The notes under the pieces were generated by a model. The model searched no databases. It had not been told where the DNA came from and saw only the letters and a list, made by a program, of their open reading frames with translations. Below, in pieces: positions 5,253-42,633 of a stretch of DNA of 64,000 nt (its first letter is position 1; each line of letters begins with the position of its first letter). Source of the DNA: Candidatus Moraniibacteriota bacterium. Lineage in GTDB: Bacteria; Patescibacteriota; Minisyncoccia; Moranbacterales; UBA1568. The stretch is from positions 37,817 to 101,816 of the forward strand of contig CAVZUR010000002.1 in NCBI GenBank assembly GCA_963778555.1, written 5' to 3'. The translations under genes were made by a program, and so were the position numbers.

Positions 5253-6323
5253 ATGACTCGCACGCTTTCATTGCCACTTATGTCGCGACTACTTCAATAC
5301 GGCAGCGGGGCACTTCTAATCGGCACCGTGATTCTCTGGTCGTACTGGTCTTCCGGAGCTGACGGGACACTGCCGACGTACCGACCCGCCGATAGCGATG
5401 CACCGTCGACCGAGGGGCTTCCGACCGTGAATGCTCCAAACCCAGTCTCGCTCCCGGCGCTCATGGCTAAGGATTATGATGGACGTGATTTCCGGGTGGG
5501 GCGAGTGCTCGACGACAACGCCGCTTACACACGGACCTTTATCACGTACAAAAGCGGTGATCTGACCATTTCGGGAATCATGAATGTGCCAAAAGGGATA
5601 CCGCCCATCACCGGCTGGCCGATTCTCTTCCTCAATCATGGGCATATCGATACAGCTATCTATACCAATGGCCGCGGATTGAAGCGCGAACAGGATTATT
5701 TCGCTCGCCATGGCTACGCGGTGATTCATTCTGATTACCGGAATCATGCCGAATCCGACAAGGATCCGGAAAATGAGTTGCATTTTCGGCTCGGCTACAC
5801 CGAGGATATCGTCAATGCGATCTATGCAGTCCGAGCCGCCCGGCTGCCGTATCTCGATAGTGAGCGGATCGGCATGCTCGGCCACTCGATGGGCGGGGGC
5901 GTGACCCTGAATGTACTCGTCGTCGCGCCAACGCTCGTCGATGCGGCGGTCCTGTTCGCTCCCGTCTCGGCCAACTACGAGCGCAACTATGAACGCTGGA
6001 CGAAACGCGAGAGCGCAACCGGGAAGCAAATCATCGAACGCTATGGGACGCCAGAAGCCAACCCGGATTTCTGGAATGCCATCTCGGCGAAGAATTACTT
6101 CGACCGTATCACGGCCCCGATCCAGAACCATCACGGTACGTTGGATGAGTCCGTCGAGTTGAAATGGTCGGATGAGCTCGAGGGGTGGCTGAAGGATGCC
6201 GACAAGGACATAGAGTATCTAGTCTATCCGGGCGAGCCGCATGAGTTCATCGACGCTTGGCCACTTGTCATGCGCCGCACTCTCGCTTTCTTTGACCGGC
6301 ACGTGAAGGGGAAGCCGCGTTAG
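5253..6323 (+). CDS. alpha/beta hydrolase (S9 peptidase/dienelactone hydrolase-like), N-terminal TM
   Basis: Nucleophile elbow 'GHSMGGG', an N-terminal hydrophobic anchor, and a C-terminal His in 'GEPHEF'. Confidence 0.7.
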   Translation: MTRTLSLPLMSRLLQYGSGALLIGTVILWSYWSSGADGTLPTYRPADSDAPSTEGLPTVNAPNPVSLPALMAKDYDGRDFRVGRVLDDNAAYTRTFITYKSGDLTISGIMNVPKGIPPITGWPILFLNHGHIDTAIYTNGRGLKREQDYFARHGYAVIHSDYRNHAESDKDPENELHFRLGYTEDIVNAIYAVRAARLPYLDSERIGMLGHSMGGGVTLNVLVVAPTLVDAAVLFAPVSANYERNYERWTKRESATGKQIIERYGTPEANPDFWNAISAKNYFDRITAPIQNHHGTLDESVELKWSDELEGWLKDADKDIEYLVYPGEPHEFIDAWPLVMRRTLAFFDRHVKGKPR

Positions 6324-6370
6324 GTCGCTGCAGCGGACAATGCGCTATAATGAGGCAGCAAGACAAAAAA

Positions 6371-7601
6371 ATGAAAAGATTTTTTTCGTATCTCTTTTTC
6401 CTCCTCCTGACAGCCGGACTGTTCATCGGGGTCTATTGGCTCAATTGGTTCCATCCCGCCATTAATCCGGGCCAGGAAGTGACCTTCGTTGCTGAACAGC
6501 CGTCGAATGAATCTGGTATTATCATCCGCGATGCTCCCGATCCCGAGGGACGCACGCCGGACAAGAATCCGCCCATTCTGGTCGAAGCAATCGCCTCCGG
6601 TTTGGATACGCCGTGGGATTTGGTTTTCACGTCGCCTTCCCGTATTCTCATCACGGAACGGCCGGGACAGATTCGCGTCCTAGAAAACGGCACTTTGCGC
6701 GAAACGCCGCTCCATGTTTTTACAGAAGTCGTAGAGAAAGGCGAGGATGGGTTGATGTCGATCGCAGTTGGTCCTGCATATTCGGAAAATCATTTCCTCT
6801 ACGCCGCGATCGCGTATGGCGAAGCGGATCGGCTCTGGCTGAAAGTCATGCGTTTCATCGATACCGGAAATGCGCTCACTGAACCGTTTACTGTGATTGA
6901 TCGTATCCCAGCCGCTCAGTTCCATGCTGGCTGCCGGATCGCGTTCGGTCCCGACGGGAAGCTTTATGTCACGACGGGTGACGCGACGGACAAGACTCTC
7001 GCTCAGGATCCGGCATCGCTTGCCGGAAAAATTCTCCGCCTCAATAAAGATGGGACGATACCTGACTGACAATCCCTTTGTCGGAAGTGCAGTCTGGTCA
7101 CTCGGCCATCGCAATCCGCAGGGGCTGGCCTGGCAGCCGGAAGCTGGGATTCTGTTTGAAACGGAACATGGTCCTTCGCTTTTCGACGGACCAGCGGGTG
7201 GAGATGAAGTAAATAGAATCGAGAAGGGTGGGAACTATGGTTGGCCCCTGGTTTCGCATGAAAACTCGCGCGAAGGCTTCGTTTCGCCACTGGTCGTCTT
7301 TACGCCGGCCGAAGCGCCCGGCTCGCTCATGATCTATTCTGGTCGGGTCTTTCCGGAGTGGCGGGGCAATCTGTTCTTTGGCGCGCTTAAAGGCGAAGGA
7401 CTCATGCGGATTCGACTGGAGGGGACTGATGCGAAAAAGGTGGCCGCATACGGTAAACTGGGCGAGGTCAAACTCGGCCGCATCCGGGCGGTAGTGGAAG
7501 GGCCGGACGGCAATATCTATTTCACGACGTCCAACCGTGATGGGCGCGGCCAGCCCGCGCCACTTGATGACCGCATCTTCCGCATCCGAGGCAAGGATTA
7601 G
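6371..7601 (+). CDS. PQQ-dependent soluble aldose sugar dehydrogenase (YliI/SGDH family), frameshifted (fragments 6350..7069 and 6897..7601)
   Basis: Six-bladed beta-propeller SGDH motifs are split over two frames. The reading frame breaks at a tandem CTGA CTGA at 7063-7070. Removing one copy restores '...DGTIPDNPFVG...'. Confidence 0.75.
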
Positions 7602-7627
7602 GCCCAAAACGGACCTTTTTCGGACAC

Positions 7628-7657
7628 TTGACTCTTAGTACCCCCGGGGGGTATAAT
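7628..7657 (+). promoter_or_regulatory. consensus sigma70 promoter TTGACT-18-TATAAT for the SDR gene
   Basis: -35 TTGACT at 7628-7633 and -10 TATAAT at 7652-7657. The spacer contains the palindrome CCCCCGGGGGG. GGAG lies 8 nt before the ATG at 7713. Confidence 0.6.
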
Positions 7658-16484: not shown

Positions 16485-19293
16485 ATGCCTGGAAAAAAGA
16501 GTGTCATCGAGATACGCGGAGCCCGGGTGAACAATCTGAAGAACGTGGACATCGACATTCCGCGCGATTGTCTCGTCGTTATCACCGGACTGTCGGGATC
16601 TGGGAAATCATCACTCGCTTTCGATACGCTGTACGCCGAGGCCAACCGGCGTTATGTCGAATCACTCTCGGCCTATGCGCGGAACTTCATGGAGGGCTAC
16701 GACAAGCCGGATGTCGATACGATAAAAAATCTTTCTCCGGCCATCTCGATCGACCAAAAGAGCGTCTCACGGAGTCCACGTTCGACGGTCGGGACCATGA
16801 CGGAAGTCTACGATTTTCTCCGTCTCCTCTTTGCCAAGGTCGGGAAGCCGCACTGTCCGAAATGCGGCCAGACGCTCTCGCGCAAGACCGCCGTAACCAT
16901 CTTGAATGAAATTCTGGCGCTGCCGAACGAATCGAACCTCGTCTTTGCGGCGGAAAGCCCGCTCCTCGCCGGGAAGAATTGGCAGCAGGCCATCGATCTG
17001 GTCGATGACTGGGGCTTTGTGCGTGTTTGGTACCGCGATGCGGCGGTCTTGCTTTCTGAGCTGCGGACGATCGTCGACCTGACGGCTCCGGCCGAGTGTT
17101 TGATTATCATCGACCGGATCGCGCTCGATACTGCCCGACCGGATAAAGAGCGCATGCTCGACTCGATTCATACCGCCTTTCAGACCGGTCAGGGTGTGAT
17201 GCGACTCTTGGCGGACGGGGAGCATTTTCATAATTACCATGAGCGCTATCGCTGCGAGGTCTGCCAGGTCGAGCTCCCGGAGTTTTCACCGGCGCACTTC
17301 TCGTTCAATAATCCCGAGGGTGCCTGCCCGACCTGCAGCGGCTTGGGCGTGACGTTGGAATTCGACCCGGCGCTCGTCATCCCGAACGATATGCTGTCGA
17401 TCTCCGAAGGGGCTATCCGTCCATGGAGCAAGATGAACAGCGATCGGGGAAATGGCAACGGTCCGATGGCACTCTTGCGGGAGATGGCAAAACGCGAGAA
17501 GATCTCGCTCGATATCCCGGTCAAGAAACTCACTGAGAAGCAGCGCGAGTATATCCTCCGTGGGGATGCAAAGCGTGATCTGGCGGATGAATTCGGTTTC
17601 CCGGGTGTTCTCGGCCTTTTGGAGCGGAAGTATCGCGAGACGAAGTCCGATCACCTGCGAGCGGAGATCGAAACCTTCATGTTCATGCAGCGTTGTCCGG
17701 ATTGTCTCGGGAAGCGGCTGCGCCGAGAGTCGCTTTCGGTCTTTGTGGGCGAGCGGAATGTCAGTGATTTTGTCAATCTTTCTATTGAAGAACTTATTGG
17801 ATTCTTCAAAAAGCTCCGGGGTACGCTGCTCCAGAGCGGGGAGGAGAAATCGCTCGTTGATCCATTGTTCAACGAGATGGAGATGCGGCTCACGGCCGTC
17901 GATAAGGTCGGTCTCGGCTATCTCTCGCTGTCGCGGAGCGCGGATACCCTTTCTGGCGGCGAAGCTCAGCGGATCCGGCTTTCGGTCCAGATCAAGTCCG
18001 GCCTTTCGGGCATCATCTATGTCCTGGATGAGCCGTCGGTCGGGCTGCATAGCCGCGATACGGACCGGCTCATCCGCGCGCTCGAAGAGCTCCGCGGTGC
18101 CAATAACTCACTCGTCGTAGTCGAGCATGACGTCTCGATTATGCGCAAAGCGGATTGGATCATCGATCTCGGACCCGGTGCTGGGAAAGAAGGCGGGGAG
18201 ATGATTTTCTCCGGCACCCCGGAGAAGCTGATGAAATCAAAAATGCTGACGGGACAATACCTCTCCGGCAAGCGTTCGGTCGTGAAAAAGGAGTCCCCCC
18301 GCCAGGGATCCGGCCGAGTCCTCTCGATTGAGGGCGCAACGGAACATAACCTGAAAAATGTGACCGTGGATATCCCGCTCGGGAAATTCGTCTCGGTCTC
18401 AGGCGTTTCGGGATCTGGCAAATCGACCCTGGTGCACGATATCCTCTCACGGGCGCTGGCCAGGCATTTTTATCAGGCCCGAACGGAGCCCGGCGCACAT
18501 CAAGCAATCAAGGGCATCGAGCACATCGACAAAGTGATCACCGTCACGCAGGATCCGATCGGGCGGACGCCGCGTTCCAATGCCGCGACGTATACCGGTA
18601 TTTTCAGTCTCATCCGGGACGTCTTTGCCGCGACTCCCGAAGCGCAGAAGGAACGGTATTCTGCTTCATATTTCAGTTTCAATATGCGCGGCGGACGCTG
18701 CGAAGTCTGCCAAGGCGGTGGATTGAAGAAAATCGAGATGTATCTCCTGCCCGGATGTCTATATTTCATGTGAGGTCTGCAATGGAACGCGCTACAACGC
18801 GAAGACGCTCGCAATCCAGTATCGGGGTATGCATATCTCCGAGGTTTTACGCATGACGGTCGCTGAGGCGCGGCACTTCTTTCTTGACCAACCGATGATC
18901 GAAGAGAAGCTCCGAGTTCTCGAAGAAGTCGGTCTCGGTTATCTCGTCTTGGGCCAGAGCGCACCTAACCTCTCGGGCGGAGAGGCGCAGCGTATCAAGC
19001 TCGCGACTGAACTCGCCCGGAAATCGACAGGCAAGACCCTGTATATTCTCGATGAGCCGACAATCGGACTGCACTTCGAAGACGTCCGGCGTCTGTTGGA
19101 GGTGCTCAACGCGCTGGTGGACAAGGGGAATACGGTCCTGGTCGTCGAACACAATACCGATGTGATCAAGGCCTCCGATTGGGTCATCGATATGGGACCG
19201 GATGGCGGTGACCGCGGCGGCATGATCGTCTATGCCGGGGTACCTGAAAAATTGAAAAAAATAAAAGCGAGTTTTACCGGGAAGTATCTCTAA
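16485..19293 (+). CDS. uvrA: excinuclease ABC subunit A (UvrA), frameshifted (ORF fragments 16362..18773 and 18829..19293)
   Basis: Both ABC modules and the zinc fingers are present. The frame breaks at CCC 18750-18752. Reading one base on restores the UvrA-like '[33 protein letters not shown]...'. Confidence 0.9.
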
Positions 19294-19309
19294 ACGTCCG
19301 ACGCCGCGT

Positions 19310-20230
19310 ATGCTCAAAAAGGCTATCCTCGCGACGATTGCCTACTATGACGCCCTCGAATATCCTTTGACTGGGTTTGAGGTGTGGAAGCATCTCATCC
19401 AGCCGAGCGAGGCACTGACAGTCGGTCCAACACTCGGGGAGACGAACGCAGCGCTCGAGGGCTCATTCAGAGCGGAACGGCCTCGCTGTTCCGGGGTTTT
19501 GTCGTACTGCCGGGTCGGGAATTGCTCGTTCCGACCGCGTATCCGCTCCGAAAAACACGCGGTGAGAAAAATCAAGCGCGCCGTGCAGCTCGTTCGCTCG
19601 CTCGCTTGGGTACCTTTTGTCCGGATGATCGGACTGACAGGAAGTCTCTCGATGAAGCGCGGCGACGAGCACAGCGATTGGGACTTGTTCGTCGTGCTTC
19701 AGAAGGGGGCGATTTGGCGCGGCCGGACGGCATTATCGCTCATCCTCCAGCTGATGGGCAAGCGCCGCCACGGGCGGGCCATCGAAAATCGCGCCTGTCT
19801 CAATCATTTCGTGACGGATGGCAGCCTCGAGATCGTCCTACAGGATTTTTTTTCGGCACATGAGTATCGATTCATGTACCCGATCGTCGGGGAGGAGACG
19901 TTCCGTCGTTTCGAGTTGGCCAATCGCTGGATGGTCAAGATCAAACCGGCGTTCCGCCCGGCGGACCTGCCGGTTTTCTGGATGCGCCGATCCAGGAATT
20001 TCCAGCGATGGATCCAGCGATGGTTGGAAAGACTCTGTTCCTGGAATGGCCTGGAGGCTCGGCTGGCGCGGTGGCAGAAAATGAAAATCATGAATAATCC
20101 GAAATCGCGCGCGCCAGGCGCCTTCATCGTGGCGACGGACGACGCGCTTATCTTTCTCCCGCATCCCAAAGGACCGATGGTTTTCGAACGTTTCAAGGAA
20201 AAACTTTCGATCGCGAGTCTTTCGCTCTAG
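19310..20230 (+). CDS. nucleotidyltransferase-fold family protein (CPR-type 'MLKKAILxxAYYDxxEYPLT' family), probably carrying two compensating frameshifts
   Basis: NTase motif 'GLTGSLSMKRGDEHSDWDLFVV', plus 'ACLNHF' and 'FSAHEY' blocks. The middle segment reads as protein only in the +2 frame ('FRGFVVLPGRELLVP...RKTRGEKNQARRAARSLA'). A (CGCT)3 repeat lies at 19595-19606. Confidence 0.6.
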   Translation: MLKKAILATIAYYDALEYPLTGFEVWKHLIQPSEALTVGPTLGETNAALEGSFRAERPRCSGVLSYCRVGNCSFRPRIRSEKHAVRKIKRAVQLVRSLAWVPFVRMIGLTGSLSMKRGDEHSDWDLFVVLQKGAIWRGRTALSLILQLMGKRRHGRAIENRACLNHFVTDGSLEIVLQDFFSAHEYRFMYPIVGEETFRRFELANRWMVKIKPAFRPADLPVFWMRRSRNFQRWIQRWLERLCSWNGLEARLARWQKMKIMNNPKSRAPGAFIVATDDALIFLPHPKGPMVFERFKEKLSIASLSL

Positions 20231-20283
20231 GCACGCCTGCCACGTGCTATAATGGGGAAAAAGAAAAGCAAAAGAGAACGGCT

Positions 20284-21508
20284 ATGCCGAAGTATTTGTA
20301 TACAGCGAGAAATATCTCGACGGGCGAGACGAAAGGCGGGGAGATCATCGGCAAGGATGAAAGCCATGTCGGTCAGGATCTCCGCGGTCAAGGGTATCTC
20401 GTCACATCCCTCAAGCTCATAGAAGAAGCGACGGAAGGCGTCCAGGTAAAGTTCCTTGACCGCTTCCGGTCGGTGCCATTGAAGGAAAAGATGATGTTTA
20501 CGCGAAACCTCGCGGTTATGACATCATCGGGTTTGACGATTTCACGCGCCATCCATAATCTCGCCCTGCAGACGAAAAACAAGCGCTTTCAGAAGATCCT
20601 GAACGACGTGCATGATGATGTCCAGGCAGGCAAGCAACTCTCTGAAGGTTTGGCCAAATACCCGAGCGTATTCAACGATCTGTTCGTCAACATGGTTTCG
20701 GTCGGGGAAGTCTCGGGAAATCTGGAGGAGGTGCTCGATATCCTCGCGCTTCAGCTTGAGAAGGAGCACGAACTCCTCTCCAAGGTGCGCGGAGCGCTGA
20801 TTTATCCAGCGGTCATCGTTGTCGCCATGATCGGCATCGCGACGCTGATGCTCACCTATATCCTGCCGAAGATTACGCAGACATTCGTCGATATGGACGT
20901 GAAGCTTCCCGCCACGACGCTCTTCATCATGGGGCTTTCAAGTTTCCTTATCACTCACTGGCTCTTGTCGCGTCCTGATCGTCGTCGGATCGATGGTGGC
21001 CGTCCGCGTCGCCGCCAAGACTGAAGCGGGCCGTTATTTTCTCCATTGGCTGGTGCTGCGGCTGCCGATCGTCGGCAATATCGTCATCAAAGTGAACTGC
21101 GCGCGTTTCGCCCGCATTTACAGCTCGCTCTTGAAGAGCGGGGTCTCGGTTATCAACGCGCTGACCATCGTTTCTCGGACTCTGGGCAATGTCTATTACA
21201 AGGAAGCCCTGATCAAAGGCGTGGAAGAGATTCAGAAAGGGACAGAGCTTTCCAAGATCATCGGACAATACCCCGTGATTTTCCCGATACTCGTGACCCA
21301 GATCATCCAGGTCGGCGAAGAGACCGGAAAGACAGAGAACGTCCTTCAGCGCTTGGCGGAGTTCTATGAGGAGGAGGTTTCTCAGATCACGAAGAATATG
21401 TCATCGATCATCGAGCCGATCCTGATGCTCCTCATCGGCAGCATGGTCGGTTTCATGGCTGTGGCCATGCTCCAGCCGATGTACAGCGTCCTGGAAAATA
21501 TCCAGTAA
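20284..21508 (+). CDS. pilC: type IV pilus assembly platform protein PilC / GspF family, frameshifted (fragments 20284..21024 and 20993..21508)
   Basis: Two T2SSF domains split across frames. The frame changes near 20965-20975: '...LITHWLL' is followed in another frame by 'VLIVVGSMVAVRVAAKTEAGRY...'. Confidence 0.85.
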
Positions 21509-22900
21509 TGATTTCCCGTATGCAGAGATCTACCGAACGGCGATCACTCCAGGGATTCACCCTCGTCGAAGGGATGGTCATGCTGTTTCTCTTCGTGTTG
21601 ATTACGACCGTTTTCTTCCAGACGTTTGCCTACGGTACGGCGCTCGTCCAGCAATCGAAGTATCGTTTGGGTGCGGTAGCGCTGGCTAACCAGAAAATGG
21701 AAATCATTCGGAGCCTGGATTACGACAATATCGGCACAATCTCCGGCATTCCGGCGGGCGATATCACGGAGGATGAATCGGTGCAGGTGAATAATAATTT
21801 GTACCAGGTCCACACCTTTATCCAATACGCAGACGACGTATTCGATGGGAGGCTGGGGGACAGTCCGAACGACTTGGTGCCGAACGATTACAAGCGCGCG
21901 CGGGTTGAAGTTGCCTGGGGAGCGGAGAGCGAATCCGAGAAAGTCGCGCTCTTCTCGACTTTCGCCCCACCTGGAGTCGAGCAATCCGTCGGGTGGAGGC
22001 ATTCTCTCCATTAACATCCTTGACTCACAAGGAAACGGGGTTTCAGGCGCGACGGTTCACATTACGAATAGCGCCGTGAGCCCGACGATCGATGTGACGA
22101 CGGCCACGGACTCAACCGGTAATCTTTTCCTGGTTGGCGCGCCAGCCAGTTCGCAGCAATATCATGTGACGTTCTCCAAGAGCGGGTATTTTGGCAGCCT
22201 GACCTATGCGCCCTACCCCACGACGGCCTTCATCCCGACCGACGTCCATGCCTCAGTCGTCAATGCGACCGTCAATCCGGCGTCATTCGTCATGGATCGA
22301 TCCTCGACCCTTCACCTGAGAACCAAGGATTCATTCGGTGTGGCGATACCGGATATCGATTATCGGATCGATGGCGGCCGTCAGATTGGCACGCAGTCTG
22401 GTACAGGAGTTGCCGTCTACGATTTTGGTGAGGCTGCAACGACCGATACGAGCGGCGAGCATGATTACGCGAATCGGAGTTACGGGAGCTATATCTGGAC
22501 GCTCGACGCCGGTGAGACAGGGTACGCGTTCATCCGGCTTTCTCCCGAGTCAGGTTCGGGCGCCAATCTTATCACGCTGACGCCCGATACCACCCAGGAA
22601 GTCCAGATGATCCTCGCTGATGAAGCGGTAAACGGAGTGCTCTTCACGGTGACGAATGCTGACGATGCTACGATCGTCAACGGCGCGTCGGTGCAACTGA
22701 CCAATGCAACACTCGCCTACGATGAAACAGTGACAGCGAACATCTATGGTAAAGTCTATTTCCCCGCGAGCGCCACGCCGGGACTGGCCGCCGGAACCTA
22801 TGACTACGAGATCGTCGCCGCTGGCTATACGACTAAGACCGGCACGGTCACGGTGACCACCGGTTTGGAAGTAACCACCATTGGCCTGAATCCATCATGA
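21508..22900 (+). CDS. prepilin-type N-terminal cleavage/methylation domain protein (large pseudopilin), frameshifted at GGG 21991-21993
   Basis: Pilin leader 'LQGFTLVEGMVMLFLFVL'. ORF 21508..22014 continues as 21845..22900 once a single G is removed ('...EQSVGGGILSINILDSQGNG...'). Confidence 0.75.
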
Positions 22901-23552
22901 TGCAATATCCGTTCCCAATTCGTCGAACCAAGAAGCTGAAGGGTCTGACACTGGTTGAAATGCTAGTTGCTATTTTCATCATGTCGGCGGGGATGCTCGG
23001 CTTCTACCCTCCTCTTTTCAAGCAGCTGGAAAAGCAATAAATTCATACTCGAGACCGGGTACCACGGCAGTCCGGGTAAATCGGGCCTCAAGCGAGATTA
23101 TCAATAATCTTCGCAAAGTCCGTCAAGCCGACAATGGCGATTATCCGATCGAATCTGGCGATGATTTTGATATTCAGGTCTACCTGGATATCGATAATGA
23201 CGGGGTGACAGAGCGGGTGCATTATTGGCTCGATACGGTCAATGATTGGTTGATGCTGGGTATTCGCGAACCTTCGTCGGCGGTCCCTCCGAGTTATGCA
23301 TCTGGCGATGGTACGACCAGGATTCTCGCCGAGTACATTGTCAACGAAGCCGCTCAGCCGGTTTTCTACTACTATAATGAGAATTATCCAGGCGATACGG
23401 TGAATAACCCGATTCCGACGCCCATCGCGATCGAAAATGTTCGGCTAGTGAGAATTTTGCTCCGGATGAATATCGACCCGATTAAAGCGCCGAACAATAT
23501 CAACGTCGAATCCTTCGTGGATCTCCGTAATCTCGAATCATATGGCAATTAG
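22897..23552 (+). CDS. prepilin-type N-terminal domain protein (pseudopilin), frameshifted near 22995-23010
   Basis: A 47-aa ORF 22897..23040 carries 'KGLTLVEMLVAIFIMSAGMLGF'. The 0 frame is open from about 22980 and runs into ORF 23205..23552 ('...SSFQAAGKAINSYS...DIDNDGVTERVHYW...'). Confidence 0.65.
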
Positions 23553-25000
23553 TTCCGCAATAAGGAAAAAAGGAAGCGCGCTCGTGTACGCTCTGGTCAT
23601 CATGACGGTCGTGCAGATTGTGCTGGTCTCGATCGTCGAATATCGTCTCAACGAACATCAAGTACACTCTGAATATCCGTTCGCGCGAACAAGCGCTGCA
23701 GATTGCGGAGGCGGGAATCGATTTCTACCGCTGGTATCTCGCGCATAATGTGGAGGGAAGGACCGCGTCGCAGATCCAGAGCTTCTGGGACGACGGGAGC
23801 GCATATGGCGTGGGGACAGCCTATGAATCGGACTATTCGGATCCGAGCGGCGGAGTCATCGGCCGCTATCGTCTCGAAGTTACGCCTCCGGCGACCGGTT
23901 CAACGATTGCAATGGTGAAATCGACCGGTTGGACGTACAAATACCCGGCGGTCACGCGCGTGCTTCAGGTCCGGCTGCGTCGGCCGTCGTGGAGCGAAAA
24001 CGCCGTGCTGGCGAACGACTTCATGCGCTTCGGTGCGGGGACGGAAACCTTCGGCAAGATTCACTCCAATTATGGCATCCGCTTCGACGGGCTTGCCCAC
24101 AATGTCCTGTCGAGCGCCGTGTATAAGTATAATGATCCCGACCATACGGGCGGCGATGAATTCGGCGTGCATACGCATGACACGCCAGTCGACCCGTTGC
24201 CGGTGTCGCCCGCATTGCCTCCGGCCCGGACCGATGTCTTTGAGGCAGGACGGGAGCTTGAGGTTGCCACCATTGATTTCAATGGCGTGCTCGGTGACTT
24301 GAGCCTGATGAAGACAGCCGCCCAGTCGACCAGTTCGTACTACAGCGGTGCAGGTGCGGGCAATCTCGGGACGCGGGTTATCCTGAAATCCAACGGGACC
24401 TATGATACCTGCAAGGTAAATGCCTATAATACGGCTTATTCCATAACGCGGTATCTGAGGACTTCTAGCTCAAGCACGTGTGCCGCTTGTTCGGGATTAT
24501 GCCTGAGCAATCATACGATACCGGATGACGGAGTGATTTTCGTCGAAGATAACGCGTGGATAGAGGGTACCATCAACGATCGGAAAGTGACGATCGTGGC
24601 CGCCGATCTTCTCGGCGGCGCGGCGCCCTCAGTCTATATCCTGAATGATATCCGCTATACTAATGCGGATGGCAGGGATGTCATCGGTATCATCGGTCAG
24701 AACAATATCGAAATCGGGTGGGCCAGCGAAAGTGATCTGCGCATCGATGCTGCGCTTCTGGCGCAGCAGGGACGAGTCGGCCGCGAGCACTACACGTCAA
24801 AGGGCTACTCACCGGATTCGAAGTCAGTTATCACGGTCTATGGCGCCATCGCGACCAATCTCCGTTACGGTTTTGCTTGGACCGACGGGACTGGCTATAT
24901 CACTCGCAACCTCTACTATGATAATAATCTTCTTTACTATCCGCCGCCGTATTTTCCAACGGGTACGCAGTACGAACTCGATCTCTGGGAAGAGCTCTAG
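23542..25000 (+). CDS. PilX-like / pilus-associated large pseudopilin, frameshifted near 23656-23665
   Basis: The N-terminal TM 'LVYALVIMTVVQIVLVSIVEYRLNEHQ' (ORF 23542..23748) continues in the +1 frame as 'KYTLNIRSREQALQIAEAGIDFYRWYL...' (ORF 23618..25000). Confidence 0.65.
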
Positions 25001-25055
25001 TCGCGCGTGGTATGATGATGAGTGAAGAAAAAAGAAACGAAACAAACATGCCGCT

Positions 25056-26150
25056 ATGAGTTTTTTTCGGAAAAAGATTTTTGATCTCTTCCCTCAGCCC
25101 TTCGGCCTGGATCTGTCCGATCTTTCGGTCAAAGCGGTCTGGCTGGAGCGCGAGGGGAAGGAGGACATCGTCTCCAGTTTCGGATCGGTTCCGATCGCCA
25201 TCGGCAGCATCGTAGACGGGGATATCATAAAGGAGGACGTGGTCGTGCAGGCCATCAAAGACCTGCTCGAGAAGACGAAACCGCGGCCGGTCAAGACACG
25301 CAAGGTCATCTGTTCATTGCCGGAAACCAAAGCGTTTCTCCGAGTCGTCTCATTGCCCGAAATGCCGAGCGACGAAGTGAGGGAGGCGATCAAATGGGAA
25401 ATCGAGGCCAATATCCCGCTCACGCTCGACCAAGTGTACTACGATTATCAGATTCTCGATAAGAAACTCGTCAAGGAAAAAAACAAATTGAGCGTGCTAG
25501 TGGTGGCGGTGGCGCGGAGCATGGTCGACCAGATTCACGCGGTCTTGGAGAAGTCCGGACTGGAAGTGGTCGGGCTGGAGACGGAGTCGATCGCCCAGGC
25601 GCGCAGTCTGCTCATTGAGAAGGACGAGGATAAGACGCGGATGATCGTGGATATCGGCGATCGGCGGACCAGCTTTCTGGTCGCAATCGGCCATACGCCC
25701 TGTTTCACATCGAGCGTTCCGCTTTCCTCCCAGATGATTTCCGATGCTATTTCGAAGGAGATGCGCATTTCATTCGAAGAAGCCGAGGCCATGAAGATCA
25801 AGTACGGACTGGGATCGCTCGCCATGCAAAGCCCGCTCTTCAAGGCCGCCCAGCCGATTCTCGAGAATCTGGCCGTCGAGATCGAACGCTCGACGAATTT
25901 TTATCTCAGCAATCTCGGCTATTCGAACGCGATCGATAACATCGTGCTCTGCGGCGGCGGATCGAATATGAAAGGGCTCCTGCCGTATATGACGAAACGC
26001 CTGAACCAATCGGTCGAGTTCGGCAACCCCTGGGTCAATATCCAGCTCGGCCGGACACTCCCACCAATCGATCGGGGACATTCGGTCCAATACTCAACGG
26101 CCATCGGCCTCGCGCTGCGCGGCCTGGATGAATATGAGGATCTTACTTAA
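25056..26150 (+). CDS. pilM: type IV pilus assembly protein PilM (actin-like ATPase)
   Basis: 364 aa with an actin/FtsA-like fold, directly followed by the pilN and pilO homologues. Confidence 0.85.
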   Translation: MSFFRKKIFDLFPQPFGLDLSDLSVKAVWLEREGKEDIVSSFGSVPIAIGSIVDGDIIKEDVVVQAIKDLLEKTKPRPVKTRKVICSLPETKAFLRVVSLPEMPSDEVREAIKWEIEANIPLTLDQVYYDYQILDKKLVKEKNKLSVLVVAVARSMVDQIHAVLEKSGLEVVGLETESIAQARSLLIEKDEDKTRMIVDIGDRRTSFLVAIGHTPCFTSSVPLSSQMISDAISKEMRISFEEAEAMKIKYGLGSLAMQSPLFKAAQPILENLAVEIERSTNFYLSNLGYSNAIDNIVLCGGGSNMKGLLPYMTKRLNQSVEFGNPWVNIQLGRTLPPIDRGHSVQYSTAIGLALRGLDEYEDLT

Positions 26151-26692
26151 TATCTTGCCGGAAGAGAAACGGAACGGAATCGTTCGACGATTCCGCTCCC
26201 GGTTTTTCCTATGGCAGACAGTACTTATACTCCTCCTCGAGGTGTACTATGTGGCTGTTCTCGGGGGAATCTATATGATACTGAATTACCAAACTGAGGT
26301 GGGAACGGAATCACTCATTACTTTTGACCAGTACAGCGAAGAAGCGAAAAAACTCAGCGAATATCAGGAAGAATTCAAGCAAATCAATGCTCAGACGGAA
26401 AAAGTCAATCGCTATCAGCGTGCTCACTTTCATTGGAGCGCGCTCTTTGTCGCTGCTTCAGGAGCTCGCTCCCAAGGGAGTCGTCATCGTCGAGCTCCTG
26501 ACGAAGGATTATACGGTTTCGATTTCCGGCCAGGCAGGGACACGCGACCAATTTCTCGAATTCGAATCGGCCCTGAAAGGAGCGGAATGTGTCAGTGATG
26601 TCCGGGTCCCGATTTCGAACCTGTTTTCTCAAAAAGAAATTGAATTTCAAGTGGATTTCAAGCTGAAGCGGGAATGTCTGCTCCATCTATAA
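26128..26692 (+). CDS. pilN: PilN-like pilus assembly protein, frameshifted (fragments 26128..26598 and 26324..26692)
   Basis: The N-terminal TM and coiled coil lie in frame 1. The C-terminal 'SLLQELAPKGVVIVELLTKDYTVSISGQA...' lies in the +1 frame. The switch is near 26420-26460. Confidence 0.65.
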
Positions 26693-26696
26693 CACT

Positions 26697-27440
26697 ATGA
26701 CCAGCCCGAATATCGCACAACTGAAGCCATGGCTCATGCAGAGCGCACTGATCGTCATGATTGGACTGGCGGGCTGGTTCGTCATCCGGCCGTTTCTCGT
26801 GACCATCAAAGGGAAAATGGATGATATTCAACGACTTTCTGTGACGCGGGAGCACAGGGAGAAGCAGCTCGAAAAACTTCCCGATCTGGAGACCCAGCAC
26901 GCTTTGATTGAAGCGGAAGGAGATCAAATCGACATCATCCTGACCAAGGAGCGTCTCGTCGAATTCATCGAGACGCTTGAGCGGTTGGCATTGGTTGATG
27001 CTGTTGAGATTGAGATTGAATCGCGCGATAATGCTTTCCTCGAAAGCAAAGTGACCGCTGTGGAGAAGACAACAAAGAAGGAGGGCGCGAAGCCAGCCGC
27101 TACGGACAATCTGGATGAGCCCGTCGAGACCCCGAAACGCGGGGCGAAGGAAACCGGTATTATCACGGAACTGCCGCTCAAGACATTCCTGAAGCTCACC
27201 ATCACGGTCACGGGAGAATATGCCTCCGTCGTCCGATACCTCCATCACCTCGAAACGCTGCCTTATGCGCTCGATGTCATCGCTCTGAATATCAAAGAGC
27301 ACCCAGAGACTGGGGAGGAATTATCGTCCGAATCTGGTGTATTCAACCCGTTTGGAGAAGCAGTGCCAGAGGTGACGCGGGTTGCTCCCAAAGGGAGGCT
27401 GGACGCCACCTTCGAAACGGTCGTGTATATAAAAGAATAA
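26697..27440 (+). CDS. pilO: PilO-like pilus assembly protein
   Basis: N-terminal TM, a coiled coil and a C-terminal beta domain, positioned after pilM and pilN. Confidence 0.6.
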   Translation: MTSPNIAQLKPWLMQSALIVMIGLAGWFVIRPFLVTIKGKMDDIQRLSVTREHREKQLEKLPDLETQHALIEAEGDQIDIILTKERLVEFIETLERLALVDAVEIEIESRDNAFLESKVTAVEKTTKKEGAKPAATDNLDEPVETPKRGAKETGIITELPLKTFLKLTITVTGEYASVVRYLHHLETLPYALDVIALNIKEHPETGEELSSESGVFNPFGEAVPEVTRVAPKGRLDATFETVVYIKE

Positions 27441-27443
27441 CCT

Positions 27444-27770
27444 ATGAAATTCTCCCTGAAGCAGATCTCATTTGACTCGGTCAGGCGCCGGAGTCTTTAC
27501 TTCTGGATCCGGCATTACAAATCACTGTTTGCGATTCTCTTTTTTGTGCTGTCGGGATTCGCTGGCTATCAGTGGCACCGTGACCTCTATCGTTATACCT
27601 GGTCAGTAGAGGAACGAAAGGAGTATCTTGAGACGATTGCCAAAGAAACCGTCTTTCAAGAAAAGAAATTTCAAGATGCATTGGGACAATTACAACAGAC
27701 CCGCGAAATACATCAGTCGGATTTTAATCCAGGGAGAGATTTGTTTGAAGGCGTTCGGAAGAAGGAATAG
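27444..27770 (+). CDS. hypothetical membrane-anchored protein (possible PilP-like accessory)
   Basis: 108 aa with a single TM, last gene of the pil block. The PilP-like function is guessed from position only. Confidence 0.4.
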   Translation: MKFSLKQISFDSVRRRSLYFWIRHYKSLFAILFFVLSGFAGYQWHRDLYRYTWSVEERKEYLETIAKETVFQEKKFQDALGQLQQTREIHQSDFNPGRDLFEGVRKKE

Positions 27771-27828
27771 GAATCTTGACGACTTGATATATTCGGGGTA
27801 GAGTATCCGAACGTTCAATTACCACACT

Positions 27829-28869
27829 ATGGGAACACGTTCCGCGACACTCACTGCGATCTTTTATGGACAACCCGCCTTTCGCCTCCGCCAAGCGGAG
27901 GCGGCTTTGTTTCGGCCAGAATGGCGTTCTTGGGAGAGTGTGACTGTACTGCCGAAGGAATGGCGTTCGAAACTCTCATTGGAAGCTGCCTGGCTCACGC
28001 TGCGGGAAGGAGCGCTGCTCCAGAGCGCGAAGAAAGACACCTTCAAAGCGATCCTTGAAACGGCGGATGGGAAACGCATCGAGACCGTGCTCATGCAGAA
28101 TGCCCGCGGTTTCTGGAGCATCTGCGTCTCCTCCCAGGTCGGTTGCGCCATGGCTTGCACATTCTGTGCGACGGGCAAAATGGGCTATACGCGCAATCTT
28201 ACGGCTGATGAGATTATCGACCAGTATCGCTACTGGATGTATTTTCTGGATGAACATCGTGATTTGGCACAGCGTATCAGCAATGTCGTCTACATGGGGA
28301 TGGGGGAACCATTGGCGAACTACGACAACGTGAAATCCTCGCTCCAGGCCTTCCTCGCCCACACCGACATGGGACCGACGCGGCTGACCGTCTCGACAGT
28401 CGGTCTTATCCCGATGCTCCGGAAACTCCTCACCGACGAAACGTGGCCTCCCGTCCGGCTTGCTATCTCTCTCCACAGCGCCGATGCCAAGACGCGGACC
28501 GATATCATGCCATCGTCGTATCCGAAATTCCTCGACGATCTGGCAGCGTGGACAAAGGAGTATTTCTTGAAATTTGAGAGCCGGCGGCGGCACCTGACTT
28601 TCGAGTACATCATGTTGGCCGGCGTGAATGATACGTCTGCACATGCCGACAAACTCGTCGCGTTCGCGAGGAAAGTCGGTAAGGTGAAGATCAACCTGAT
28701 TCCGTACAATGATACGAAAAGCAAGTACAGCACGAGTGTGAGTACGGCCCTTATCGCTTTTGAAACCAAACTGAACCGGGCAGGGCTCGATGTCACGCGC
28801 CGCCGGACCATGGGCGCCGATATCGCCGCCGCCTGCGGCCAGCTCATTGTGGAAAAGAATTCAGCGTAG
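27829..28869 (+). CDS. rlmN: 23S rRNA (adenine2503-C2)-methyltransferase RlmN (radical SAM)
   Basis: Radical SAM 'CAMACTFC' and RlmN/Cfr family blocks. Confidence 0.85.
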   Translation: MGTRSATLTAIFYGQPAFRLRQAEAALFRPEWRSWESVTVLPKEWRSKLSLEAAWLTLREGALLQSAKKDTFKAILETADGKRIETVLMQNARGFWSICVSSQVGCAMACTFCATGKMGYTRNLTADEIIDQYRYWMYFLDEHRDLAQRISNVVYMGMGEPLANYDNVKSSLQAFLAHTDMGPTRLTVSTVGLIPMLRKLLTDETWPPVRLAISLHSADAKTRTDIMPSSYPKFLDDLAAWTKEYFLKFESRRRHLTFEYIMLAGVNDTSAHADKLVAFARKVGKVKINLIPYNDTKSKYSTSVSTALIAFETKLNRAGLDVTRRRTMGADIAAACGQLIVEKNSA

Positions 28870-40674: not shown

Positions 40675-41651
40675 ATGAAAATTTTAGTTACGGGAGGAGC
40701 TGGTTTTATAGGCTCCAATTTCATCCGTCATATTCTGGAAACGCGGCCGGAGGCCGAGGTCGTGAATCTCGACGCCCTCACCTACGCGGGGAATCTGGAG
40801 AATCTTGCAACGCTTCGGACGGAGTCGCGGTACCGGTTCGTGAAGGGGGATATCGCGGACGCGGCGACGGTGGACCCGCTGGTCGCCGAAACCGACGCGA
40901 TCGTCCATTTTGCCGCCGAGAGCCATGTCGACCGTTCTATTCTCTCGCCTGACGCATTTGTCCGGACCAACATTCTCGGCACCTTCACGCTGCTCGAAGC
41001 GGCGCGGAAGCATACCAAGCGCTTCCATCATGTTTCGACGGATGAAGTCTTCGGATCGCTTACGGCCACTGACCCAGCGTTTCACGAAGCGACACCGTAT
41101 GACCCACGCAGTCCGTACAGCGCGACCAAAGCCGGATCCGACCATCTCGTCCGGGCGTATTTCCATACCTATGGCTTGCCGGTGACCATCTCGAATTGTT
41201 CGAACAACTATGGCCCGTATCATTTCCCCGAGAAGCTCATCCCGCTCGCAATCACGAATCTCCTTGAGGGAATGAAAGTGCCGGTGTATGGTGACGGAGC
41301 CCAAAGACGCGACTGGTTGTATGTCGAGGACCACTGCCGAGCCATCGCGCTTATCCTCGAACAGGGCAAACTCGGCGAAACGTACTGCATCGGTGGGGAT
41401 GGCGAGCGCGAAAACATCTGGATTGTGAAAAAACTCCTCGAACTCCTGGGCAAAGACGAGCGCAGATCGAATACGTGACCGACCGCCCGGGTCATGACCG
41501 CCGCTACGCGATCGACTACTCGAAAATTAAGTCCGAACTCGGCTGGCAGCCAACGGTGAGTCTGGAGGAAGGTCTGGCTAAAACTGTCGAATGGTTCAAG
41601 GCCAATGAGAGTTGGTGGAAAAATGCTTGCCAGAAACGCGACCACATATAG
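40675..41651 (+). CDS. rfbB: dTDP-glucose 4,6-dehydratase, frameshifted near 41455-41468 (fragment 40675..41478 + C-terminal part in -1 frame to 41651)
   Basis: '[12 protein letters not shown]' and 'YSATKAGSD'. The C-terminal '[29 protein letters not shown]...VEWF' is encoded out of frame. Confidence 0.85.
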
Positions 41652-41830
41652 TGCGATCGTGGGCTGGTGAAGAGCGAGGAGTATCAGAAATACTACGCTG
41701 AGCAGTATGGGCAATAGTAGTCACTATAGCAGTTTGGTGGTTGAGTATGTGGGAACTATGCCCGAATGTATTTATATAGTACAGTTGAATCTGTCCATGT
41801 TCAAAGTAAATCAATATTGTATATAGTTAT

Positions 41831-42505
41831 ATGGCAGATCGGATTCTATTCCTGATTTCAGGGGTCGTCATGATTGGAGGGGCTTATCTGTCTATGTTTT
41901 TTGGTGTTACTGGATATATGGCCTTCTTTTTATTTTGTATCCCCATTATGTCTACTGTACTCAGGCCAATTGTGTCTGCACATGGGGTGGTCAACCAAGA
42001 AAGTAAGCTTGCCTTTCCCGTGAAATTAGTCAGTTATACAATGCTATCCTATGGATTACTTACTATTCTATTATTGATTACAGACTCTATTTTTGTTGGT
42101 TCAATCCCGTTAGTATATCTGTTTCTAAGCATATGTTTGTATCCAATTGTGCATTTCACCTATGTTGTTTTGCCTAAAAGCCTGACGCGAGAGAGGGGAC
42201 TGATTGTTCCATTTTATCCAAGCGGAGTAACTTTGGTATTGGGATACATATTTGTGTACATGTATCATACAGCAGACCTGTCCCCTATCTTAATACTGCC
42301 CATAATAATCTGTTGTATTACCAGTCCTTTTCTGTACAAACGGAGCTTTGAAGTTATGCTTCGTCAGGGTGGGTCAACAGCATATACTAAAAAACAATAC
42401 CTCATACAACTCTTATTGGTTTTTGTAATAGGATTTATTGTTTTCGTATCCGGATACTTGGGTATGGGGCTTTCGAGTATAGAATACGGATTGCCTGGCC
42501 TATGA
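41831..42505 (+). CDS. hypothetical polytopic membrane protein in low-GC insert (possible polysaccharide-related, e.g. Wzy/acyltransferase-like; unassigned)
   Basis: 224 aa with about 7 TM segments. GC is roughly 38% against about 60% for the flanks. The Wzy/acyltransferase guess rests on location inside the rfb cluster only. Confidence 0.5.
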   Translation: MADRILFLISGVVMIGGAYLSMFFGVTGYMAFFLFCIPIMSTVLRPIVSAHGVVNQESKLAFPVKLVSYTMLSYGLLTILLLITDSIFVGSIPLVYLFLSICLYPIVHFTYVVLPKSLTRERGLIVPFYPSGVTLVLGYIFVYMYHTADLSPILILPIIICCITSPFLYKRSFEVMLRQGGSTAYTKKQYLIQLLLVFVIGFIVFVSGYLGMGLSSIEYGLPGL

Positions 42506-42633
42506 TTTCACACTCGGAGATCTGAAAGCGGCTCTCTTTGAACATATTTTAGGTATGTAGCCTAGCTTAGGTTAACATGCATTGAAGTTATGCCTGTGAC
42601 GCTGGCTAGTCGTTTTGCTATAATGAAGGCACT

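Follow-up and report, generated by a model that had tools for sequence, protein, structure and literature searches.

Clustered single-base frame breaks in a type IV pilus operon and uvrA of a Candidatus Moraniibacteriota contig are probably errors in the deposited consensus sequence

The 64,000-nt stretch of DNA analysed here (the window; contig CAVZUR010000002.1, positions 37,817 to 101,816) is part of a 140,917-nt contig of an uncultured, metagenome-assembled Candidatus Moraniibacteriota bacterium, a member of the candidate phyla radiation (CPR). It carries a type IV pilus operon, arranged in the order NTase-like (nucleotidyltransferase-like) gene, pilC, large prepilin, small prepilin, pilX-like gene, pilM, pilN and pilO. 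In the deposited sequence, the interval 19310–26692 contains eight coding single-base insertions or deletions (indels), distributed over six of these genes, and one intergenic insertion. A ninth coding indel was located in uvrA at 18750–18754, and the cluster thus spans 18750–26448 (table 1). It is argued below that these breaks arose in the consensus and not in the organism.

Relatives of the locus were found by scanning species-representative genomes for PilM, which gave 80 loci, all from Candidatus Moraniibacteriota (Moranbacteria, CPR/Patescibacteria). The nearest of them (L001–L006, L021 and L060) were 87–90% identical to the window in PilM and 70–78% identical in DNA, and the window is colinear with them from 15 to 35 kb. 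Relatives for the flanks were obtained by means of malic enzyme and serine hydroxymethyltransferase homologues; a metagenome scan with LepA yielded one usefully close locus only, with scant synteny. It was also found that many of the nearest Moraniibacteriota genomes (L001–L004 and others, as well as protein P0242) were deposited under wrong names, for example as 'uncultured Bdellovibrionales bacterium' or 'Undibacterium sp.'.

The breaks were placed by DNA alignment to 7–13 relatives and by frameshift-aware protein–DNA alignment, and a near-identical contig, where one existed, was also compared directly at the break sites. In the relatives each of the affected genes is a single stop-to-stop open reading frame (ORF): 937–968 aa for uvrA, 312–382 aa for the NTase-like gene, 416–498 aa for pilC, 459–489 aa for the large prepilin, 217–246 aa for the small prepilin, 476–518 aa for the pilX-like gene and 212–217 aa for pilN. 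When the ORFs of the relatives were compared with the window by tblastn, each broken gene carried on in another frame. The frameshift-aware alignments ran from end to end with one event per break, and the fragments keep full-length homology in the shifted frames (55–96% identity), save for 26 scrambled residues in the NTase-like protein. The DNA alignments gave one extra base per break, specific to the window.

The extra base in uvrA is absent from all 13 of the relatives aligned and from L170, and the relatives have one UvrA protein of 935–968 aa. In the NTase-like gene the two indels compensate each other, leaving the ORF open with 26 conserved amino acids scrambled. This pair was seen against eight relatives in the DNA alignment, ten in the frameshift-aware alignment, and L170, and the corrected N-terminus fits the nearest relative (P0267) better than the translation of the window itself. 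The extra C in pilC is absent from all relatives, and each of the two fragments carries one T2SSF domain. The genes rlmN and miaB are intact.

Table 1. Genes and intergenic sites of the window at which frame integrity was assessed.
Feature	Coordinates	Strand	Observation
uvrA	16485..19293	+	Split into calls of 762 aa and 154 aa (P0258, P0255); 1-nt insertion in CCCGG 18750–18754; left edge of cluster
NTase-like gene, 306 aa	19310..20230	+	1-nt deletion between 19458/19459 and 1-nt insertion at ~19534 (19531–37 in the frameshift-aware alignment)
pilC (two T2SSF domains)	20284..21508	+	Extra C at 20971
Large prepilin-like gene, 463 aa when intact, CarboxypepD_reg-like domain	21508..22900	+	Extra G at 21991 (21985–91 in the frameshift-aware alignment)
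Small prepilin, 217 aa when intact, N-terminal methylation motif	22897..23552	+	Extra A at 23006 (23005 in the frameshift-aware alignment), extra G at 23057
Intergenic, small prepilin/pilX-like gene	23566	+	Extra A (A5 to A6), from comparison of the window with L168
pilX-like minor-pilin-like gene, 471 aa when intact, GTG start	23584..25000	+	Extra C at 23644, absent from L168 and relatives
pilM	25056..26150	+	Intact; PF11104 PilM_2 over 1–339/340, E = 3e-48; 87–90% identical to relatives over the full length
pilN, 187 aa corrected	26128..26692	+	Extra T in 26446–26448, absent from relatives; right edge of cluster
pilO-like gene (247 aa) and 108-aa gene	26697..27770	+	Both intact (L167 and relatives)
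Glucose/sorbosone dehydrogenase (GSDH)	6350..7601	+	Outside cluster; extra G at 7064
rmlB	40675..41711	+	Outside cluster; 1-nt deletion between 41460/41461 (41460–66 in the frameshift-aware alignment)

Three contigs of the same population (L167, L168 and L169) were available from the Logan (k-mer) assembly of run ERR11593397, and are 99.6–99.95% identical to the window. L168 (5519 nt) matches window positions 19686–25210 at 99.6%, with 16 substitutions and six gaps, and all six gaps are single bases found in the window only (C20971, G21991, A23006, G23057, A23566 and C23644). It encodes an intact pilC (407 aa, P0247), large prepilin (463 aa, P0250), small prepilin (217 aa) and pilX-like gene (471 aa), and the protein sequence of the window fragments is identical to P0247 and P0250. 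In the small prepilin, where both extra bases are absent from L168, 7–9 relatives agree with it. L169 (1826 nt) equals window positions 5824–7650 except for the extra G at 7064, and its GSDH is intact (416 aa), while in the window the Pfam match of this protein is split over two frames (1–160 and 157–329). L167 (1336 nt) showed one mismatch and no gaps against 26591–27926. Relative to L168 and L169, seven of seven indels are a single base present in the window and absent from the contig. The earlier note on this DNA had named a corrected consensus yielding intact ORFs among the outcomes that would refute it; the independent contigs supply one for pilC, both prepilins, the pilX-like gene and GSDH. 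A literature search on the run accession found no record.

The 15 coding substitutions that separate the window from L168 were synonymous without exception, indicating that the genes have been under purifying selection up to the present. Thirteen of these form a block in pilC (20599–21412; 1.6% in 0.8 kb, all synonymous), compared with a substitution rate of about 0.06% in the other 4.7 kb of the aligned pair. This block of single-nucleotide polymorphisms (SNPs) shows that the locus has at least two haplotypes, and looks like a strain-level haplotype or a recombination block confined to pilC.

The uvrA insertion, both NTase-like sites, the pilN insertion and the rmlB deletion were judged against relatives only. 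A chimeric query of corrected NTase-like, PilN and UvrA-junction protein recovered relatives of at most 96% identity, and no same-population contig for the four sites in uvrA, the NTase-like gene and pilN. Among the 120 matches listed for this query, which included the full corrected PilN, there were zero matches to PilN, versus the NTase-like and UvrA relatives, which were present. The PilN matches were missing despite PilN relatives of 58–80% identity in the fetched loci, probably due to a limit of the word-index prefilter.

In all, 12 single-base indels were counted, ten insertions and two deletions. Outside the pilC SNP block, comparison with the three contigs gave 4 substitutions and 6 insertions over about 7.9 kb, a ratio that does not fit a natural spectrum of mutations. 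Neither nonsense codons nor lesions of larger size were found within 18.7–26.5 kb. The contexts of the coding breaks (e.g. tcgCgtc, tctAccc and tatCgtc) contain no repeat tract at any site. About five of the indels lengthen a run of two bases and one of the 12 (position 23566) lies in a homopolymer of at least 5 bases; the others are non-repetitive. Since uvrA, GSDH and rmlB, which are unrelated genes, were also broken, the process is not specific to the pilus.

A census of frame breaks was made by frameshift-tolerant protein-to-DNA alignment of 199 pairs of relative protein and window, covering 47,555 coding bases. Alignment events at start codons or gene boundaries, which were caused by the use of stop-to-stop ORFs as queries, were discarded. 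The regions 1–4.2 kb and 54.8–64 kb were checked by Pfam domain completeness only; the domains were complete and no split genes were seen. The census gave 11 internal coding events, each backed by all relatives, of which nine fall in the cluster and the remaining two are at 7064 and 41460. The presence of nine of the 11 events within 7.7 kb had a probability of 8.5e-5 in a scan-statistic simulation, and that of eight of the 11 in 19310–26692 (15.5% of the tested bases) a binomial probability of 3.5e-5. With the intergenic insertion included, the load is about ten indels in 7.7 kb versus two in about 40 kb elsewhere, and the indel density in the 7.7-kb stretch is ~25-fold that of the other sequence tested. 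No further compensated indel pairs were found in the census. Groups of overlapping ORFs elsewhere (for example 10603/11655, 13271/13699, 35021/35818/36218 and 46487/47110/48018) were considered as candidate breaks and rejected, being separate intact genes by comparison with relatives. Base composition was likewise dismissed as a cause, since the region is ordinary in GC content and in its density of homopolymers, and an alternative genetic code is not relevant to breaks that are changes of frame rather than in-frame stops.

These results bear out most of what the earlier note had observed. The frame breaks it assigned to six named genes were all located by the alignments to relatives, and pilM and pilO are intact, as it had stated, as is the 108-aa gene, according to the relatives, the Pfam match of pilM and the gap-free alignment of L167. 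Its count of about 7 breaks inside the region against about 4 outside compares with the present figures of eight coding and one intergenic inside, one in the adjoining uvrA and two, not about four, elsewhere. The view that such clustering exceeds uniform random error agrees with both the scan statistic and the binomial test. Of the two sites it singled out, the G3 tract at 21991 is the exact position of the insertion in the large prepilin. The CGCT tract is not a break site: (CGCT)3 is present at 19595–19606, aligns to the relatives without a gap and contains no indel.

The breaks are best explained as errors of the deposited consensus sequence rather than as traits of the organism, and we give this reading a probability of about 0.9. 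It rests on the fact that every break is a single base and specific to this contig, together with the intact genes in the independent assembly of the same population. How the errors came about can be outlined tentatively. The contig may have been built from error-prone data of the long-read type, and over about 18.75–26.45 kb the consensus would then have rested on too few or mixed reads, so that errors of the insertion type could survive polishing. The likely local cause would be strain heterogeneity or low effective depth at a fast-evolving pilus locus. The pilin genes are the fastest-evolving here (48–82% identity to relatives versus 83–96% for UvrA), and the shortness of the single-run contigs of this organism (1.3–5.5 kb) hints at low coverage in run ERR11593397. 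Indels in long-read consensus sequences are known to fragment gene calls and to become fewer with coverage (PMC9262707), and nearby allelic variants have been shown to induce indel errors in collapsed assemblies (PMC8445201).

Several points weigh against this explanation. The long-read consensus and the low depth or strain mixing are inferred. Of the inserted bases, only about half lengthen a short run, and a homopolymer of at least 5 bases is involved at a single site, unlike the classic Nanopore signature of homopolymer deletions; this mismatch speaks against one platform signature, not against error as such. The relatives with which uvrA, the two NTase-like sites and pilN were compared have 70–81% DNA identity. 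Moreover, the 13 SNPs in pilC separate L168 from the window, and the two haplotypes are therefore not identical; the k-mer assembler gives the dominant path, which leaves a small probability for a minor real variant; and run ERR11593397 may or may not be related to the reads behind the contig.

A real inactivation, in which the pilus operon and uvrA of a genuine, possibly minority strain were hit by many independent insertions alongside a pilus-intact strain, is very unlikely. The breaks are gathered in one functional locus, L168 differs by the 13 pilC SNPs and shows that two strains exist, and it is biologically plausible that pressure from phages should lead to the loss of a surface structure. 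However, such a history needs nine very recent indels in 7.7 kb, eight of them insertions, without a nonsense codon, a larger deletion or an amino acid change, although a single indel would already have knocked out the operon. Most of the insertions lie outside slippage-prone contexts, every coding substitution relative to L168 is synonymous, and a like insertion occurs in an unrelated gene (7064) on a stretch that is otherwise 100% identical to its contig. Long-standing pseudogenes would have been expected to show amino acid changes, nonsense codons and deletions, and instead protein conservation is perfect and insertions are in excess. The relaxed selection or decay suggested by the earlier note is thus contradicted by the synonymous substitutions (15 of 15) and by the 10:2 bias towards insertions. 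It is quite improbable that the contig is true to a real subpopulation whose pilus operon and uvrA were inactivated by a local burst of single-base insertions over about 8 kb, with the intact strain coexisting; were this so, it would mean that a CPR bacterium undergoes an unusual clustered insertion mutagenesis, or that loss of its pilus has been selected for repeatedly.

A collapsed repeat or a chimeric join, to which the local character of the errors might be ascribed, is very improbable as their source. The sequence of 18.5–27 kb does not recur in the window, bar a weak 77-nt match between the two ATPase halves of uvrA, and the gene order is colinear with about ten relatives over the whole region, as are the independent contigs. 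Of the technical causes offered by the earlier note, low coverage or a collapsed repeat, technical error as such is upheld by the intact independent contigs, and the collapsed repeat is not supported within the window. In other bacteria, genes for pili and other surface structures are classic examples of phase variation, and the difference between A5 and A6 at 23566 would fit a toggling of the pilus genes by slipped-strand mispairing. This explanation, also raised earlier, is hardly credible here: the A-tract change is intergenic, none of the coding breaks falls in a repeat tract, the (CGCT)3 tract carries no indel, homopolymer density is not raised, and the independent switching of six genes would make no regulatory sense. 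The chance that the frames are restored during translation, by programmed +1 ribosomal frameshifting, or by slippage in transcription is negligible. Nearly all breaks are +1, but the sites are not conserved, the relatives and the near-identical contigs have the genes in a single frame, and no slippery motif is shared among the sites.

Beneath the errors, this Moraniibacteriota bacterium has a type IV pilus operon that is intact and ordinary for the CPR. The intact PilC (P0247) matches PF00482 in two stretches (E = 2e-58), and the small prepilin matches PF07963 above the Pfam cutoff (E = 2e-7 for the window fragment and 1e-5 for L168). The methylation-motif score of the large prepilin is weak (E = 0.088). 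Corrected PilN has a weak Pfam PilN match that spans the junction (20.6 bits vs the cutoff of 22.8), and the pilO-like gene, which had no Pfam hit, is named by position only. No pilB/pilT ATPase and no PilD prepilin peptidase was found among the roughly 70 ORFs of the window that were scanned; these genes may lie elsewhere in the genome.

The ~306-aa gene lies directly upstream of pilC both in the window and in relatives L001–L006, L021 and L060. It has a faint resemblance to nucleotidyltransferases (Polbeta), with no Pfam family above threshold. Relative L162 (1–1644) carries, some 16 kb upstream of the canonical uvrA, an additional UvrA-like gene of 861 aa, to which no counterpart was seen in the window.

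For rmlB, the deletion was detected against relatives L165 and L166, the Pfam match is truncated, and an intact protein of 342 aa (P0263) falls in the same 90% cluster. The 3' end of this gene in the window also has an in-frame insertion of 42 nt (41625–41666) with a TAG codon, which occurs once in the window and is absent from L165 and L166. It would remove the conserved last ~16 residues of RmlB, and may be either real or another assembly artefact. Between rmlB and rmlD, GC content falls to 0.45 over ~41710–42610, against about 0.55. This low-GC stretch contains an ORF of 231 aa (41810–42505) that had no Pfam hit; the relatives have nothing at this position or a different ORF of 113 aa, and it is possibly an inserted gene.

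For attachment and DNA uptake, CPR bacteria are believed to rely on pili. If the record were taken at face value, both the pilus and UvrA would seem to have been lost in this lineage, which would be a false ecological inference. The gene calls of the record are fragments, and public protein collections already hold truncated fragments from the contig. In the 90% clusters, fragments P0246 (171 aa) and P0249 (274 aa) are the representatives, and the intact P0247 (407 aa) and P0250 (463 aa) are members, so that searches restricted to representatives return the broken versions. The biological weight of the case is small, and its value is that of a quality-control flag on the record and its truncated proteins. 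It also indicates that the errors left in the consensus of a metagenome-assembled genome can cluster strongly, in which case an error rate averaged over the whole genome is too low a guide to the local risk where loci are variable.

The poly-G tract of Neisseria pilC is an example of a phase-variable pilus gene, and the present locus resembles it in that one G puts a pilus gene out of frame. Here, however, the tract is no longer than GG/GGG, the remaining breaks lie outside repeats, and the near-identical population is in frame. Compared with the type IV pilus operons of other CPR/Patescibacteria, gene content and order are the same as in about ten Moraniibacteriota relatives, and after correction of the consensus no difference is left; no pilB/pilT or prepilin peptidase gene was seen among the scanned ORFs of the window.

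Indels caused by haplotype collapse (Cosentino et al. 2021, PMC8445201) are similar in that the locus bears variants (the 13 pilC SNPs) and the frameshifts are gone when one haplotype is assembled cleanly. That case concerned a diploid eukaryote, whereas strains of a metagenome would be involved here, and the SNP block covers only pilC while the indels span 7.7 kb. The indel errors of long-read assemblies (IDEEL test; Sereika et al. 2022, PMC9262707; Kastor, PMC12007338) differ from those described here, which are insertion-biased, lie mostly outside long homopolymers and are ~25-fold denser in one 7.7-kb stretch. The likeness is that in both cases single-base indels divide otherwise perfectly conserved genes into neighbouring pieces that lie in different frames, are gone when the assembly is made independently and hit unrelated genes, and that the truncated proteins reach the databases.

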